64,000 nt of DNA, taken from IMG/VR virus record IMGVR_UViG_3300022555_000046. One strand, written 5' to 3'. The position numbers and the translations under genes are program-made. The notes under the pieces were generated by a model. It did not search any database, had not been told where the DNA came from, and saw only the letters and a program-made list of their open reading frames with translations. This stretch comes from a virus. Positions 12,884 to 43,258 of this stretch are shown here, piece after piece (within the stretch, counting starts at the first letter, position 1; each line of letters opens with the position of its first letter).

Positions 12884-12936
12884 TTGTCCCGCCCCGGGTA
12901 TCGAACCCGGGCAATAGACCAGATCAGCGAGGGGGT
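12884..12936 (-). ncRNA. T-arm-like mini element
   Basis: CCCGGG-TTCGATA-CCCGGG T-loop-like hairpin followed by GCGGGAC; intergenic. Confidence 0.4.
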
Positions 12937-13830: not shown

Positions 13831-13837
13831 TGATTGG

Positions 13838-14049: not shown

Positions 14050-14361
14050 TTAAATGAATTGATACCATGTTTCAACTGTTGATACCAGTACACATTCCTG
14101 ATTGAAGGTGTCCCGAAACCTTTCTGCTATTTCCTTGGCGGTCAGGCCAGTGATGGCCTTATCCATGTTGATAAAGGAAACAACCAGTGATACTTCCTGA
14201 ACTTGTTTCCAGTATCCGATCTGTTCTGACACTGAGAATGCGTGTATTTCGTATTCTGCAAGCATCTTCGCAATTGTTACCTTGGCGGCATCTTTAGCTA
14301 TTGCATCGCCTTCTTTGGTTGTCATCCCGACAAACCAGTTGTATTGAATCGCTTTCTTCAT
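14050..14361 (-). CDS. SAM lyase (T3 SAMase)-like / DUF3574-like protein, first gene of leftward early transcript
   Basis: GYWKQVQEVSLVV..AKEIAERFRDTFNQECVLV matches the G-x-[YW]..E-x-[ST]..Q-[DE]-C-V-L pattern I recall for phage SAM lyases. Confidence 0.6.
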   Translation of the reverse strand: MKKAIQYNWFVGMTTKEGDAIAKDAAKVTIAKMLAEYEIHAFSVSEQIGYWKQVQEVSLVVSFINMDKAITGLTAKEIAERFRDTFNQECVLVSTVETWYQFI

Positions 14362-14391
14362 TGTGTGTGGGTTTTAAGGGTTAATACTTGT

Positions 14392-14461
14392 ACCTATCTG
14401 CTGGAATCGAACCAGCATCCCCGGGGCAAACCCCGGTGTAATACCGTTATACTAAGAAGGT
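14392..14461 (-). tRNA. Degenerate tRNA-like element (not a canonical tRNA)
   Basis: TAGTATAACGGTATTAC D-arm and GCTGG-TTCGATT-CCAGC T-arm; anticodon arm one nt short, acceptor stem bulged, no encoded CCA. Confidence 0.5.
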
Positions 14462-14938
14462 CTTCGCAGGATCATTGAAACGGGCACCCAACATACGGGT
14501 GATCCTAATCAGTAAGACAACCACCGGACCAACGTGGAACGGTTAATTTAAGCGGAAACGCTTGTGCCCTCTGCATCATCTGCGGTGGGCTGGAGGCGAA
14601 TGTCAGGAGTAATGCTGACTTCCGATTATAGTGTCACTTAATATGATCAAGTGAACCTGCTACCCTTTATTCTCTGGTGTGAGTCCCCGACTTCACTCAT
14701 GGTTACTGTTTCTGGATCATTGCACTGACTCACGTCTGGACACCTGCTGATTCACATCAGGGGGCTTGATCTGGGTTTTCTTGATCCCAGTGTACCGTTG
14801 TGACCGTTGTTACTGGGGTGTCAATCTTTCACCGTGGGAAGGAGGATTTCAGGAAGTCAAAGAACTTAAAGTGGGATCATTCTAAATCACGGGACGAATC
14901 CCGGGGGTCAAATGGTGACGCAGTAAATAAAGAACGAT
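14462..14938 (-). ncRNA. Long structured 5' leader / candidate ncRNA
   Basis: ORF-free ~480 nt after promoter; UUCG and GNRA-capped hairpins; boxA-like GTTCTTTGAC at 14856-14865. Confidence 0.5.
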
Positions 14939-14942
14939 GCGG

Positions 14943-14973
14943 CAAAAATAATATGAATAGAGACGCTTGTCAA
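14943..14973 (-). promoter_or_regulatory. Bacteroidota-type promoter for leftward early genes
   Basis: TTGACA (14973-14968)-N17-TATTTTTG (14950-14943). Confidence 0.75.
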
Positions 14974-15151
14974 GCATTATCTTTTATTCTGATTCTAAAT
15001 AAGGAAATACCATGTCAGGAACTGTCAGTAAATACTACGATATGTCATCTAATTTAGAATGATAATAAATTTCATACACGACAAAAACAATTATTGTGGC
15101 ACAGTAGTTGTGTAGGTGTGTGAAATAGATGAAAAATATCTCTGGAAACCC

Positions 15152-15182
15152 TTGACAATACTGGTATAATGTTGTATATTTA
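15152..15182 (+). promoter_or_regulatory. Putative promoter
   Basis: TTGACA-N17-TATATTTA. Confidence 0.5.
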
Positions 15183-15272
15183 CAGTCTTATATGGACACA
15201 GTCTACGGTCAAATAGACCCTTTTCGACCCCTGTCCGTTGTAAGGGCGAAAACCTAACAAATTGAGTGTTTT

Positions 15273-15482
15273 ATGTTCATTGAAGGACTGATTGATATAG
15301 AATGGCTGAAATCCGCTGGTATCGTGCGTTTCGAGGATGAGCCAGAACCAGTGCTTAAGATTAGATCACTGATTTACAAGGCTGATCAACTACGCTGGAT
15401 TGACTGGGACAATGCAAGGGACGTACAGGAGGCAAGAAACATCATGGAAAGCAGTGGAGTAGCTTACAGGAGTAGGGGTTGA
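15273..15482 (+). CDS. Hypothetical protein
   Basis: 69-aa ORF downstream of promoter. Confidence 0.5.
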   Translation: MFIEGLIDIEWLKSAGIVRFEDEPEPVLKIRSLIYKADQLRWIDWDNARDVQEARNIMESSGVAYRSRG

Positions 15483-16504: not shown

Positions 16505-16575
16505 CACCTTTTTATATATTTCTATTACTGTTTCTATTTCCATATGGGGGACCATATGGCTCTCCATATGGGGAA
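16505..16575 (-). repeat. Iteron-like 3x CATATG (12-bp period), copy A
   Basis: CATATG at 16541, 16553, 16565 plus AT-rich flank; inverted copy of 22017-22080. Confidence 0.6.
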
Positions 16576-16858
16576 TGTATTTTCTATTGTATTGATAATC
16601 AATGGTAAAGTGCCAACCCTTCACCGCATGGAGAAAAGTTGTTTAGCTGTTTCAAACAACCAGACAACCCAGAAGGTGCTGGTAGTGAAACAGATAGCCG
16701 GGATGTCAACGAAATCCATTGCGTGAACATGATCATTTTCCCGGGATCAGGAAAATGATAACGAGTGTAAGTGCTTGATCTATAACTGTAAAATGCCATC
16801 TCTCCACCGTGTGGATAATTTATTTTCGATCTCGTGTCGGATGTACATATATTGTACG

Positions 16859-16866
16859 TATATTTG
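16859..16866 (+). promoter_or_regulatory. Promoter -7 box for rightward middle genes
   Basis: TATATTTG; -33 region divergent. Confidence 0.5.
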
Positions 16867-16870
16867 CATT

Positions 16871-17270
16871 CAGGTTCTGGACCGTTGCTGTTATCGGGCG
16901 AGACATGTCGAACCTCACGTTCTTTGAAACCCCCGTCTGATTGATCAAGACCGACTGATTTCGTGGATTGATCGAAAAGGACCGACCCCCGAAACCGATC
17001 CATGAGCCTCGCCAAAGGTTTGTGGCGGGAATGATTGAGGGGCGGTGGCCTTGGCACGGCACGGGGGTGACAAAGGACATACGAAATCGTTCTTCGTCTC
17101 CCGGCAAGGTTCCCAATCTATCTCCCGATCCGGTCCATCCCGGGAGTTGAAAGTAGTAGGGGCGAAAAGCCGGGAGAGCGGAACGGTGGGGTCCAATGAA
17201 GTCATGGAAAAAAGGAGAGAAACTTACGTTTAGAAGGAAACTCGCACATATCACAATATCTGAAGAATAG
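16871..17270 (+). ncRNA. Long structured 5' leader / candidate ncRNA
   Basis: boxA-like GTTCTTTGAAA at 16919-16929; perfect long-range helices 16929-16936/17061-17068 and 17097-17105/17169-17177. Confidence 0.5.
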
Positions 17271-17282
17271 GGAGGAGCCGAA

Positions 17283-17525
17283 ATGAAAGCTGGCATAAGA
17301 AAAACAACTGAAGGGCTAAGGTCTTACATGAAGAAACACGGTTATACAGGGTTATTATTTTCGGATGAAAACTGCGGATGCTCAATACATGACCTTGTAC
17401 CATGTGGCGAAGATCATTCTCAATGTGAATTTGGATGGGAAAGGGAGTGTTCGGCAGAAGAAACAGATCAGGGGTATGATTTTATGATAACTAATATAAA
17501 ACCCACAGAGGAGGAAACAAAATGA
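17283..17525 (+). CDS. Cys-rich hypothetical protein
   Basis: CGC..DLVPC..C; GGAGGAG upstream. Confidence 0.65.
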   Translation: MKAGIRKTTEGLRSYMKKHGYTGLLFSDENCGCSIHDLVPCGEDHSQCEFGWERECSAEETDQGYDFMITNIKPTEEETK

Positions 17526-20815: not shown

Positions 20816-21152
20816 ATTTTTTGAATATGCAAAGCGTCATTACTCCAACCCCTCGGAAGATACCGTGGAATTCTTTATGAGAACATTATCTCTCTCACCG
20901 TCAGAAACGGTGGTTGAACTTCGCAGACAGGCCGGGAACACCACCCGCCAAGTCGATGACGCAATTCAGAGGCTGTTTGCCGGGGAATCTATTAGGGCTA
21001 TTGATCACTGGAAGTTTGGATCATCCGAGGAGGCAAACACAAATTACTTCAGGAGGATACTTCTACGGATCGAGCATGAACATAGCTGGCTGATCAGGTC
21101 AAACCTTCTGGAGATTGACGAAATAGAACTCACGATCAAGTTACACAATTAA
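20796..21152 (+). CDS. Hypothetical protein
   Basis: ATG 20796 preceded by GGAGG. Confidence 0.6.
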   Translation: MRKLLTKFFEYAKRHYSNPSEDTVEFFMRTLSLSPSETVVELRRQAGNTTRQVDDAIQRLFAGESIRAIDHWKFGSSEEANTNYFRRILLRIEHEHSWLIRSNLLEIDEIELTIKLHN

Positions 21153-27399: not shown

Positions 27400-29602
27400 A
27401 GATGTATTAAAGCAGTATCTCCCGGCAGATAAATTTCTTCGGGTAAACGACAGGGACCCAAACCTTGTCCCGATAGACATACCACTTCCGAAATGCCCAC
27501 CACTTCATCTTATTGACGGATATGGACTACCTGCAAAGGAGCAGAAGTTCAAGCGTGAACAGATGCCGATAAATCTGGCGAAGATCGTTAAGTACTGCGA
27601 TTCCGTTGACGACATCTGGACGAAGTTGTATGCCAGACAACGGGAGATGAAGTCTGAGATAGACTGGATAAAAAAGCAATGGTATTATCGCAGACACGGA
27701 TATTGGTTTTTTAACAACGGAAAACCAACCTATATAACTGGCACTCACCACTTCTATCTTCAGTGGTTTAAGATTGACGTTGGTTCCCCGAAGTACAGGG
27801 ATCGGTCCAGAAAGCACTTTCTGTGCATGGACTTCCTTCATAACTACACCTATGACTTTAAGGAGAAAATTTACGATGTAAAAGGCAATCGCCTTCCTAA
27901 TAAATTTGGTGACGAACTGGAAGACACCGGACACCGCACAATGTTTGGTCTTGTCTATCCAAAAATGAGAAGAGCGGGTGCGTCCTACGAGTCTTTGGCT
28001 TGGATGCTTAACCGGATCACCATGACCGAACGGGCGCACTCTGGTATTCAGGGACCGGATAAGACCCACGGATATCGGGCGTTCAAGAAACTGGTATTTG
28101 CTTGGAGGAAATTACCATTCTTCTTCCAACCGAAGTTCACCGGAGACAATGACCCTGAAGTAAAACTTAACTTCATTAACAAAACCACCGGGGACTTTAA
28201 TGCCACTCTTGGACTTGAGACCCAGTTGACTTTTGCAACCACGAACAATGGCCTTCATTACGACCAAGAGAAACTTCTTGACTACCTTCGGGAGGAACCC
28301 GGGAAGACAAAACTTGACAACATTTACTTCTCGTGGGATAAGATAAAGAATACGCTGGCTCAAGGGGACGGTGCTGAGATCGTTGGATTTGCCTTGTATC
28401 CATCAACTGCCGGGGAGATGGAGAAAGATGGCGGGGAGAATTATTTCTATATGTGCCGGGACTCCAATTACTACGAGCGGGTTCCTTCTGGGAGTACTAA
28501 AACTGGCATGGTTCTTATCTTCATCCCGGGAGATGAGGGGCTGGAGGGTTATATTGATGAATATGGAATGTCTGTTACTGACACTCCAACTGAGGAACAG
28601 GCGGCATTCATCAAGCGTAAAATCGGGGCAAGGGAACACATTCTGGGCGGCAGGTTGCATTATCTCCAGAGAATGACACCAGAGGGCAACGAAAAATATC
28701 TGGAGCATTGTAGGCTTTATCCTCTATCAATAAAAGACTGTTTTGCTACCTCTGGAGGTGGAATTGGGTTCAATGAAATAATCCTTGATAAGCGGATGGG
28801 TGAACTTCGATTCGACCAGACTGCTACCAGACGTGGAAATTTTGACTGGGAAGATGGAGTGTTTCTTGGTAAGGTGATCTGGAATGATGATCCGAACGGA
28901 AGGTGGACCGTCTCCAAGCTACTACCAGACGATAAAACGAATTTAAGATTCTGGGATGAGGCTCGTGGAAGTTGGATGCCTGTCAATCCCGGCTCTCACA
29001 TGCACTGTTCCGACCCCTTCAACTTTGACGAGACTGAAGGTAGTCGGCAGAGTATGGGAGGAGGAATTTGTATAGAACGGAGAAAGCATATTCAGGGAGA
29101 TAGTGTGCCTATACAGAAGTGGCTCACACCGGACGTTGTTTGCACTTATTCATTCCGACATGCTGATACCACTCTGTTCTGCGAGGATATGTTGATGCAG
29201 ACCCTTTATTACGGGGGGAGACATAATCCTGAGTCGAATAACGAGATGGTCAGGAAGTACTTCAAGAAACATAAGTGCAATGGATTCCTTTATTACTATA
29301 AAGACGAGGATGGTAAGTTTAATAAAACCGCTGGATATTCCCTTAATACAGATATGCAAACAAAAATCCTCGGAAGTTCAGTTGACTTTATTGAACGTCA
29401 TGGTCATCGTTGTAATCATCTGGAACTACTTGACCAGTGTAAGAATTTAAGGGGAAGGAAGGACATTACAAACAAAGACCTTGTTGCTGTTTTCGGAGGG
29501 GCTACCCACGCTATTCAGGAGGATTATCGGGTTGAGGAAGTTGCAGACGAAGAGGAGGATCAGTGGGACCTGAGTCCTTGGGTAAAAAAAAGGAGGGGTT
29601 GA
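27386..29602 (+). CDS. terL: Terminase large subunit (crAss-like)
   Basis: PKMRRAGAS Walker A variant, LREEPGK Walker B, PSTAG C-motif, nuclease CSDPF..E.N. Confidence 0.85.
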   Translation: MQVVKDVLKQYLPADKFLRVNDRDPNLVPIDIPLPKCPPLHLIDGYGLPAKEQKFKREQMPINLAKIVKYCDSVDDIWTKLYARQREMKSEIDWIKKQWYYRRHGYWFFNNGKPTYITGTHHFYLQWFKIDVGSPKYRDRSRKHFLCMDFLHNYTYDFKEKIYDVKGNRLPNKFGDELEDTGHRTMFGLVYPKMRRAGASYESLAWMLNRITMTERAHSGIQGPDKTHGYRAFKKLVFAWRKLPFFFQPKFTGDNDPEVKLNFINKTTGDFNATLGLETQLTFATTNNGLHYDQEKLLDYLREEPGKTKLDNIYFSWDKIKNTLAQGDGAEIVGFALYPSTAGEMEKDGGENYFYMCRDSNYYERVPSGSTKTGMVLIFIPGDEGLEGYIDEYGMSVTDTPTEEQAAFIKRKIGAREHILGGRLHYLQRMTPEGNEKYLEHCRLYPLSIKDCFATSGGGIGFNEIILDKRMGELRFDQTATRRGNFDWEDGVFLGKVIWNDDPNGRWTVSKLLPDDKTNLRFWDEARGSWMPVNPGSHMHCSDPFNFDETEGSRQSMGGGICIERRKHIQGDSVPIQKWLTPDVVCTYSFRHADTTLFCEDMLMQTLYYGGRHNPESNNEMVRKYFKKHKCNGFLYYYKDEDGKFNKTAGYSLNTDMQTKILGSSVDFIERHGHRCNHLELLDQCKNLRGRKDITNKDLVAVFGGATHAIQEDYRVEEVADEEEDQWDLSPWVKKRRG

Positions 29603-29630
29603 CAATGGGGGTTCAAAAATCATATATTTG
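29599..29630 (+). promoter_or_regulatory. Late promoter
   Basis: TTGACA-N18-TATATTTG. Confidence 0.7.
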
Positions 29631-29639
29631 CAAAAAAAC

Positions 29640-33878: not shown

Positions 33879-33897
33879 GTTAAATTAATTAACATAC

Positions 33898-33929
33898 TTG
33901 ACATTGGTAGTTTTTTATTTGTAGATTTG
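33898..33929 (+). promoter_or_regulatory. Portal promoter
   Basis: TTGACA-N18-TAGATTTG. Confidence 0.75.
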
Positions 33930-33977
33930 CAGTTAAAGTTTTACTTTAAGTGAAAAACAATCTAAGCAGATAAACAG

Positions 33978-41834: not shown

Positions 41835-43220
41835 ATGGCTCTATGGTGCGAAAACGAAAAGCCACTTAAAATAACCTTTGCGAGAAAAGAGATGGGGCTG
41901 GATGTGTATCTTTACCTCCCGGGTCCATCTCTTTCTGTTGTTGATTTCGATGTAAGGACTGAGGGCACAATGGCGTTCGCCATAAATACCGCCTACCCCC
42001 GGGTGAAACCACATATCTGGGTCGGAATGGATAAACCAGAGTGTTATGACCCAAGGTTAATGTACGAGGGATTCCCGAAGATTTTCAGAGGATCGTATTT
42101 CAGGCAGGTATATCGTGGCAAGTCCATCAAGGAATACCCACAAACATACTTTGCAGACTTGGCTAAACCCCAGAAGGGAATTGAAGACATGTTTCTTTTG
42201 AATGGAGACGATGTTACATTTGTTTGGTTTAAGCATACCCTTGCCGTGGTTCTCCATACCATACTCTGGATGGGGGGAAAGAAAATACATTTTGTCGGAT
42301 GTGATCTGGGAGGAAAAAAAGACTATCACGATGACAGGGTTCTTTCCGATGAGCAAAGGGTGTACAATAGGCTGCTGTACGATCAACAGGCAACGTTCTT
42401 GAAAGAATTCACCTCTATTGGAGAAAAATATGGGGTGGAGTGTATTTCATGTACACCGGAATCCCCTATAAATGATTTCATGCCGTACAGGAAGGTCCAT
42501 GAGGCAATATCTGACAGTAAGGCGGTAGTTGGTCCCACTCGGGATGTTAAACACGCTCTGGAGGTAGAAGAAAACGAATTAGAGGAAATAACTGACTCTA
42601 TAAAGTGGAAAGAGCCGATCAGGGAGCGTGGGGTCTTGGTTATGTGCGACAAAAATCAGGAATGGATGCTCGGCTGGTGGTTCGATAACTACATCAGGCA
42701 TAATCATCTTCCTATACAATTCGTTGACATCGGAATGACGGAGGGAGGGGTCAGGTTCTGTAAGGCTCGGGGAAGTTATGTTAAGATGAAGGATGTTCCT
42801 TTAAAGAATTGGTTTAAGAAACCATTTGCCTTGAAGTTATCTCAGTTCAAGAGAACGGTTTACATGGATGTTGATTGCGAGGTACGAGGATCAATATTCC
42901 ATTTGTACAAAAAATACCCAAAAGGATTTGTGATATCAAAAGACCTTTTCACAAAACAGTCTCCCGGCAAAGACCCCGTAAACTCAGGGGTGATAATTTT
43001 TAACCATGCCGACAGTATAATTGACAAGTGGGGAAGTAGTGTTATAAAAAACCATACCATGTACAGGGGAGATCAGGAATGTCTTGATCTTGTAAGGTAC
43101 AATTATGTCGAACTGAGTCCTGTTTATAACTGGACGAGGGTAATGGGAGATAATAGTAATGCATTAATATTCCATTATGTTGGGGCGATAGGAAAAGAAT
43201 TTATAAAAAAACAAATATGA
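41835..43220 (+). CDS. Two-domain glycosyltransferase (Maf/DUF115-like plus GT8-like GT-A)
   Basis: LPGPSL..AIN..WMGGKKIHFVGCD in N-terminal half; KKP..YMDVD..VNSGV..GDQ..YNW..FHYVG in C-terminal half. Confidence 0.7.
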   Translation: MALWCENEKPLKITFARKEMGLDVYLYLPGPSLSVVDFDVRTEGTMAFAINTAYPRVKPHIWVGMDKPECYDPRLMYEGFPKIFRGSYFRQVYRGKSIKEYPQTYFADLAKPQKGIEDMFLLNGDDVTFVWFKHTLAVVLHTILWMGGKKIHFVGCDLGGKKDYHDDRVLSDEQRVYNRLLYDQQATFLKEFTSIGEKYGVECISCTPESPINDFMPYRKVHEAISDSKAVVGPTRDVKHALEVEENELEEITDSIKWKEPIRERGVLVMCDKNQEWMLGWWFDNYIRHNHLPIQFVDIGMTEGGVRFCKARGSYVKMKDVPLKNWFKKPFALKLSQFKRTVYMDVDCEVRGSIFHLYKKYPKGFVISKDLFTKQSPGKDPVNSGVIIFNHADSIIDKWGSSVIKNHTMYRGDQECLDLVRYNYVELSPVYNWTRVMGDNSNALIFHYVGAIGKEFIKKQI

Positions 43221-43222
43221 GG

Positions 43223-43254
43223 TTGACAAGCCTGACTTAATTGTTGTAGATTTG
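43223..43254 (+). promoter_or_regulatory. Tail operon promoter (leaderless)
   Basis: TTGACA-N18-TAGATTTG; ATG 5 nt downstream. Confidence 0.7.
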
Positions 43255-43258
43255 CCAT

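Follow-up and report, generated by a model that had tools for sequence, protein, structure and literature searches.

The stretch of DNA upstream of the leftward early genes of this lake phage, which most likely infects a member of the Bacteroidota, is best explained as an untranslated leader at the 5′ end of the leftward early operon, that is, as a leader that would mimic the rRNA-operon (rrn) leaders of the host phylum, recruit Nus factors, and probably be cut off at a terminal tRNA-like module. We give this reading as a whole a probability of roughly 0.55. Within it, the interpretation of one leader element as a boxA is well supported, because the phage genome contains two copies of the element, each lying 60–85 nt downstream of a TAnnTTTGC motif and each starting one of two divergent ORF-free leaders. 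Transcription, Nus loading, processing, and the identity of the host are predictions from the sequence, and are worded as such below. The features are listed in Table 1.

Table 1. Positions of features in and around the leftward leader, and of the rightward leader, in window coordinates
Feature	Position	Strand	Remarks
Operator-like repeat, other copies	14990–15000; 15052–15062	−; +	Exact matches
Predicted early leftward promoter: TTGACA (14973–14968), 17-nt spacer, TATTTTTGC (14950–14942)	14973–14942	−	Consensus scan and TAnnTTTGC family
C-rich, G-poor RNA tract, C/G 1.5–2.0	14785–14914	−	Weakly rut-like; top 5–16% of genome windows
Hairpin CGGGA-UUCG-UCCCG	14903–14890	−	24 nt upstream of boxA
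Operator-like repeat ATTTAGAATGA	14877–14887	−	Inside predicted transcribed leader, at about +56
AAUGAUCC repeats	14881–14874; 14721–14714; 14476–14469	−	Leader
rrn-type boxA AAGTTCTTTGACTT	14854–14867	−	Core GTTCTTTGA at 14865–14857
Leader body (14485–14790), further local hairpins	14790–14771; 14699–14680; 14654–14634; 14501–14485	−	Without coding signal
Hairpin CTGAT-GTGA-ATCAG	14760–14747	−	Leader body
Hairpin GAC-GTGA-GTC	About 14736–14727	−	Leader body
Hairpin GTCAG/CTGAC	14619–14602	−	Leader body
Hairpin AAGCG/CGCTT	14563–14550	−	Leader body
tRNA-like module ending the leader	14461–14390	−	Rfam tRNA, 37.4 bits (cut-off 29)
Initiation region, A/C-rich	14389–14362	−	5′ of first ORF; without Shine-Dalgarno site
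First ORF after leader, 103 aa	14361–14050	−	ATG at 14361; orphan protein
Rightward mirror-image leader	16859–17282	+	TATATTTGC at 16859–16867; hairpin AGGTTC...GAACCT; boxA ACGTTCTTTGAAAC, core at 16919–16927

Extent and Coding Status of the Leader

The phage genome (73.6 kb) was circularly assembled from lake metagenomes, and the 64-kb window analyzed here—the whole stretch of DNA under study—represents its reverse strand. The leader is about 480 nt long, is read from the minus strand, and borders a control region of 2.9 kb that is poor in genes. About 477 nt of it are without coding signal in any frame: stop codons are numerous in all three sense frames from 14980 to 14362, and the codon-usage log-odds, trained on the long genes of the phage, are negative in six of six frames (−0.16 to −0.27), unlike those of the neighboring small genes, 11 of 12 of which are positive in their own frame. 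The first-pass annotation had described this stretch as lacking a credible ORF, a description with which both the stop codons and the log-odds agree, and the conserved micro-ORFs that it had raised as a contrary outcome find no coding signal in any of the six frames. A pseudogene or micro-ORF reading was also dropped, given the absent coding signal and the presence only of unconvincing ATG-ORFs of 5–24 codons lacking initiation signals. The GC content of the leader (0.46–0.53) is coding-like, in contrast to the AT-rich promoter zone. GATC is not enriched in the leader relative to the genome level, and a reading based on GATC enrichment was accordingly abandoned.

The 103-aa protein and a 148-aa neighbor have no relatives among 5.8 billion proteins, and the former gives only a weak, sub-threshold match to Pfam S-AdoMet_lyase (21.2 bits versus a cut-off of 28).

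Promoter and Probable Host

A strong promoter with a start near 14938 had been proposed from the letters alone. Its sequence holds up: TTGACA-17-TATTTT at 14973–14945 (−) scores 10/12 against the consensus and ranks, together with a promoter-like element in divergent orientation at 15152–15180 (+), above every other consensus match in 15.3 kb. Transcription is predicted to start near 14938. The site is also legible as a Bacteroidota-type promoter, TTG-N20-TATTTTTGC, and appears better read in this way than as a generic sigma-70 promoter. TAnnTTTG is the −7 promoter motif of Bacteroidota, and its instance TATWTTTGC is present in the phage in six copies, compared with 1.4 expected, mostly heading transcription units; several of these copies, including that of the leftward promoter, have TTGACA 19–20 nt upstream. 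The arrangement TTGACA-N19/20-TAnnTTTGC is common to the leftward promoter and to plus-strand sites at 29594–29631, 33893–33930, and 43218–43255, each located just upstream of structural genes, and these sites look like a promoter family of the phage.

The assignment of the host to the Bacteroidota, which we regard as most likely, is based on these TAnnTTTGC motifs, on the scarcity of Shine-Dalgarno sites, and on the terminase relatives, which belong to phages of the Flavobacteriia. A Shine-Dalgarno-like site was found in 11 of 54 phage genes, with most starts preceded by A-rich tracts; strong sites are nonetheless present on 20% of the genes, which counts against a Bacteroidota host. The terminase relatives are those of phages of Flavobacterium, Cellulophaga, Tenacibaculum, and Maribacter. 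The nearest terminase relatives, some of them on short contigs, are at most 46% identical. A terminase scan of bacterial genomes for the host returned nothing, and ESM Atlas look-ups with a 69-aa protein and the ParB-like protein pointed to neither a host nor a regulator.

An rrn-Type boxA in Both Divergent Leaders

The boxA of Bacteroidota rrn operons was defined in this work by conservation alone. To this end, 102 Bacteroidota rRNA-operon leaders were collected with the start of 16S as the anchor, and the 450 nt upstream were scanned for 9-mers. The commonest 9-mer, GTTCTTTGA, was found in 47 of the 102 leaders, at a density of 1.06 per kb versus 0.012 per kb in flanking DNA (an approximately 88-fold difference) and at a median position of −134 from the 16S start, with the motif TAYCTTTGC typically lying 44–120 nt upstream of it. 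The boxA takes the form AGTTCTTTGA[AC] in Bacteroidia, Chitinophagia, Cytophagia, and Sphingobacteriia, and a variant form, AGTTCATTGA[AC], in Flavobacteriaceae, where the 9-mer GTTCATTGA replaces GTTCTTTGA; both variants come after the TAYCTTTGC promoter motif. Looking in the rrn leaders for a hairpin immediately ahead of boxA proved too permissive a test, with the control reaching 97%, and was discarded.

In the phage, the boxA-like element GTTCTTTGAC pointed out in the first-pass annotation was confirmed at 14865–14856, and its 9-mer is identical to the core of the Bacteroidota rrn boxA. The sequence G[TA]TCTTTGA occurs exactly twice in the whole 73.6-kb genome (147 strand-kb), at 14865 (−), 85 nt after TATTTTTGC, and at 16919 (+), 60 nt after TATATTTGC. 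Each copy is on the same strand as its promoter motif and at an rrn-like distance from it, and stands at the head of one of the two ORF-free leaders pointing away from the control region. The number of boxA 9-mers in the phage is by itself not significant, and the argument therefore rests on position: from motif frequencies, we estimate the probability of the joint placement of boxA and promoter motifs by chance to be roughly 1e-3 to 1e-4. When extended, the matches to individual rrn leaders reach 13 of 13 nt for the left boxA and 14 of 14 nt for the right, with AGTTCTTTGACTT and CACGTTCTTTGAAA found letter for letter; the similarity between phage and rrn leaders stops after 12–16 nt. A second boxA-like word, GTTCTTTAT, is present at 14927–14935 (−), right at the predicted transcription start.

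Neither copy conforms to GYTCTTTAANA, the boxA consensus of E. coli and other gamma-proteobacteria (PMC5725501), with the left copy (GTTCTTTGACT) differing at positions 8 and 11 and the right copy (GTTCTTTGAAA) at position 8. The phage boxA resembles instead the G-containing, UCUUUGAAA-type boxA that is bound by NusB of B. subtilis (PMC13753749).

The Rightward Leader and Parallels in Other Phages

The rightward leader, about 420 nt in total, has about 355 nt without coding signal between boxA and the gene at 17283. It is G-rich, with a minimum free energy (MFE) z-score of −1.64. A 158-aa ORF called antisense to it (16820–17296) has no coding signal and looks spurious.

Comparable arrangements were found in two distant relatives. 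In Cellulophaga phage phi46:3, the boxA has the Flavobacteriaceae form, AAGTTCATTGACAT, and lies at 21089–21097 (−), outside ORFs, beside a gene-poor region, and 127 nt upstream of a leftward operon. In an IMG/VR record (G004), a leader of about 390 nt (1386–1779, +) opens with TTTG-19-TACCTTTGC, a perfect rrn-like form of the promoter, followed 106 nt further on by AGTTCTTTGA; after boxA, about 270 nt are ORF-free and are followed by a run of small genes. The G004 leader is thermodynamically unremarkable (MFE z-score, −0.36), and it has nothing in common with the two leaders of the present phage beyond boxA. In four of six distant relatives, boxA-like 9-mers occur only inside ORFs. A scan of IMG/VR for TACCTTTGC-N34-64-AGTTCTTTGA gave 25 matches, about the number expected by chance and nearly all within ORFs; thus, the promoter–boxA module is not shown to be widespread in phages. 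A search of the literature for papers linking the exact motif to boxA returned nothing relevant.

The tRNA-Like Module and Other RNA Motifs

The leader had been said to end in a tRNA-like element, and the score on the Rfam tRNA model together with the MFE structure, which is a cloverleaf, corroborates this. The D and T arms are intact, the acceptor stem is bulged, and the sequence does not encode a CCA end. All that is left of the anticodon arm is a 6-bp stem with a UUUG tetraloop, in which ARAGORN reads a 2-nt "anticodon"; because of this arm, the element is classed from its sequence as tRNA-like rather than as a tRNA, a decoding loop of seven nucleotides being absent. A decayed tRNA array was considered and dropped, there being no additional tRNA-like matches.

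Five other tRNA-like genes on metagenome contigs share the collapsed anticodon arm, with CCGGGG and CCCCGG enclosing a 4-nt loop (GAGA, GAAA, CACG, CGTA, and AGGT), and most of them adjoin normal tRNA genes. This recurrence suggests a class of non-decoding tRNA mimics. Further RNA-like motifs lie within the early operon: a motif of about 50 nt is present in two copies, at 13831–13781 (−) and 11866–11818 (−), with paired changes between them (GGGCG/CGCCC versus GGGTG/CACCC, and GTGG/CCAC versus GCGG/CCGC), and a T-arm-like hairpin, CCCGGGTTCGATACCCGGG, is present at 12911–12893 (−). Each of these elements is located just upstream of an early-operon gene without a Shine-Dalgarno site. The repeated motif (55-nt bait) had no matches in IMG/VR.

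Does the Leader Body Fold as a Large RNA?

Each of the hairpins listed in the first-pass annotation was found at its place. The same annotation had gone further, proposing a large non-coding RNA (ncRNA) comparable to GOLLD and ROOL, or an antiterminator RNA. In a fuller version of the ncRNA proposal, which goes beyond that annotation, the phage would have copied the whole logic of an rrn operon at the start of infection: an rrn-like promoter would drive a stand-alone structured ncRNA of about 480 nt and of a new class, boxA and the Nus factors would serve as its folding chaperone, RNase P would release it, and it would act early in trans, serving as decoy, sponge, or scaffold; the mirror-image leader would give rise to another RNA of this type. 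The order of promoter, boxA, ncRNA, and tRNA(-like) element does parallel that of promoter, boxA, 16S, and tRNA in rrn operons; the GC content of the body is coding-like rather than spacer-like; and a second long leader lies across the control region. In addition, perfect hairpins of at least 5 bp number 8, as compared with 3.1 in shuffled sequences (p = 0.018), although 8% of genome windows also reach 8, and hairpins with GNRA or UNCG tetraloops number 3, as compared with 0.34 expected (p = 0.004). Several similar tetraloop clusters are present elsewhere in the genome, on the other strand.

The thermodynamic data do not favor such an RNA. Against dinucleotide shuffles, the leader as a whole has an MFE z-score of −0.21, its two halves score −1.09 and +0.05, and the antisense strand is as stable as the sense strand or more so. 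In sliding 120-nt windows, the z-score is mostly between −1.4 and +0.7, and the one window reaching −2.3 to −2.9 falls within the tail of the distribution for coding windows. Covariance-model searches with Rfam identified only the tRNA-like element, both in the 64-kb window at the gathering score and, with regard to anything relevant, at E ≤ 10 in 14200–15300. Thus, with neither an Rfam family, nor excess folding stability, nor strand asymmetry, the reading as a large folded RNA is not supported, and the folding models show a leader body of local hairpins only, with no global fold.

No DNA homologues of the leader were found in phage records, plasmids, IMG/VR (exact 31-mer), or five complete genomes of distant relatives (all E > 0.1); protein-anchored locus searches with the 103-aa protein and a 467-aa protein uncovered no related loci; and the phage genome contains no paralogue of the leader. 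The gathering of homologues that had been suggested, which also covered metagenomes, recovered only identical copies: the contigs on which the 103-aa gene was found do not differ over 5.3 kb, and the leader region is without variant letters across lake samples from three studies. This identity can be counted in favor of an ncRNA, and the lack of homologues, and hence of covariation, against it; the three long leaders—the two of this phage and that of G004, with its unremarkable z-score—share only boxA. Overall, we consider the stand-alone ncRNA, including its elaboration as a copy of the whole rrn operon, to be unlikely.

Equally doubtful is the notion that the body is a neutral spacer, for example a remnant of lost early genes or a recombination junction, in which boxA makes read-through safe and the hairpins are incidental. 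Such a spacer would fit the missing thermodynamic signal and the fact that conservation cannot be shown, as well as the 8% of genome windows with as many hairpins; the neighboring genes, all orphans, also suggest a fast-evolving region. It is at odds, however, with the absence of residual coding signal in every frame, with the enrichment of tetraloop hairpins, with the rarity with which phage genomes keep 400 nt of useless DNA, and with the three independent occurrences of leaders of 390–480 nt behind boxA, twice in this phage and once in G004.

Operator-Like DNA Repeats

Part of the leader bears marks of a DNA element. The sequence ATTTAGAATSA is present in three exact copies within 186 bp (14877–15062) and is absent elsewhere in the 64 kb, compared with approximately 0.06 copies expected. 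The copies are located at about −119, −54, and +56 with respect to the predicted start; those designated B and C are part of a longer, 18-nt inverted repeat (ATTTAGAATSAKAATAAA), and the two on the minus strand are spaced by 113 bp, a layout that recalls operators acting by looping. The trio looks like an operator set, so that part of the "recurring ATGATCC/GGATCA" reported in the first-pass annotation would be a DNA site. That recurrence itself stands, with three copies of AATGATCC on the RNA strand—half of the six in the window, two of them further down in the leader body—and partly belongs to the operator-like repeat. Three closely spaced, iteron-like CCATATGG(G) repeats are also found at 16541–16575 (+), within the gene-poor control region that separates the two leaders.

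That the body as a whole acts as DNA, with ATTTAGAATSA and the three AATGATCC sites binding a phage regulator or a ParB/KorB-like protein for looping repression, partition, or replication control beside the iteron region at about 16.5 kb, would suit the exact copies flanking the start site, the concentration of AATGATCC on one strand, the position at the edge of the control region, and the ParB HTH/KorB-like protein encoded by the phage, but is decidedly unlikely. The operator motif does not reach beyond nt 60 of the leader; the match among the AATGATCC copies is just 8–9 nt long, and the intervals between them are uneven (160 and 245 nt); nothing resembling a palindromic parS site was seen; GATC stays at genome level; and neither boxA nor the tRNA-like end is explained in this way.

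Proposed Mechanism

In the rrn-mimicking leader that we favor, the 5′ end would imitate a host rrn leader, with a TTG-N20-TAnnTTTGC promoter followed 85 nt later by boxA (GTTCTTTGA). The nascent boxA RNA would load host NusB–S10 together with NusA, NusG, and SuhB, and through this loading RNA polymerase would come to elongate as on rrn operons, fast and resistant to Rho; the complex so formed could then cross about 400 nt of untranslated RNA and a long early operon interrupted by RNA modules. The divergent rightward unit would be opened by the same boxA device. At the other end of the leader, the tRNA-like module is a probable cut site of the RNase P/RNase Z type, parting leader from mRNA. With the ATTTAGAATSA repeats on either side of the start, part of the 5′ leader may also work as DNA.

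Convincing intrinsic terminators needing anti-termination were not found in the operon; the C-rich tract is only mildly unusual, and Rho dependence is not legible from sequence. Furthermore, the proposed mechanism does not account for the retention of approximately 400 nt of non-coding sequence.

Comparison With Known Systems

One close likeness is to the rrn leaders, in which boxA acts with NusB–S10, NusA, NusG, and SuhB: the 9-mer is identical, the distance from the promoter motif is comparable, the orientation is sense, and untranslated RNA and a tRNA shape lie downstream. The phage boxA differs in preceding protein-coding early genes, no boxC or RNase III stem was recognized, and Nus binding is putative. 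As with nutL and nutR of phage lambda, a boxA is located downstream of the early promoter in both divergent units. However, no adjacent boxB-type hairpin was seen at lambda spacing, and in its sequence the boxA follows the host rrn version rather than the weakened one of lambda. There are no hairpins within 10 nt after either boxA; the nearest ones before it are at 24 nt (left) and 3 nt (right), and two GUGA-loop hairpins lie 100–130 nt downstream of the left copy. Searches of the neighboring ORFs, which are short orphans, for an N-like protein in Pfam and PHROGs gave no match.

A role for boxA beyond rrn operons is established, as in the 5′ UTR upstream of suhB in enterobacteria (PMC5725501). 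The phage element resembles it in its 5′-UTR position on a transcript other than rRNA, where it would likewise influence Rho-dependent termination, but it misses GYTCTTTAANA (having G at position 8), its leader is much longer, and its context is that of a phage. With the t-elements and tRNA punctuation of plant mitochondria (PMC1920247), the terminal module shares a non-decoding tRNA shape, a location at the junction of non-coding sequence and mRNA, and a suitability for cutting by RNase P and RNase Z; it differs in its bacterial phage context, in its bulged acceptor stem, and in the lack of an encoded CCA, and its cleavage is putative. GOLLD and ROOL are likewise several hundred nucleotides of non-coding phage sequence adjoining a tRNA-like gene, but the present leader is without Rfam match, excess folding energy, or conserved relatives.

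Significance

Anti-termination dependent on boxA is textbook knowledge for E. coli rrn operons and lambdoid phages, but to our knowledge is essentially unexplored in Bacteroidota and their phages. A phage with exact copies of the rrn promoter motif and boxA of its host phylum on both early units, and no recognizable N/boxB partner, provides a testable case, and this combination suggests direct hijacking of the rRNA elongation machinery by the phage. As a by-product, the boxA of Bacteroidota rrn operons has been defined, AGTTCTTTGA[AC], together with the Flavobacteriaceae variant AGTTCATTGA. The Cellulophaga phage carries the boxA variant of its own host family; if this pattern is general, boxA variants could help to assign hosts to uncultured phages of Bacteroidota.
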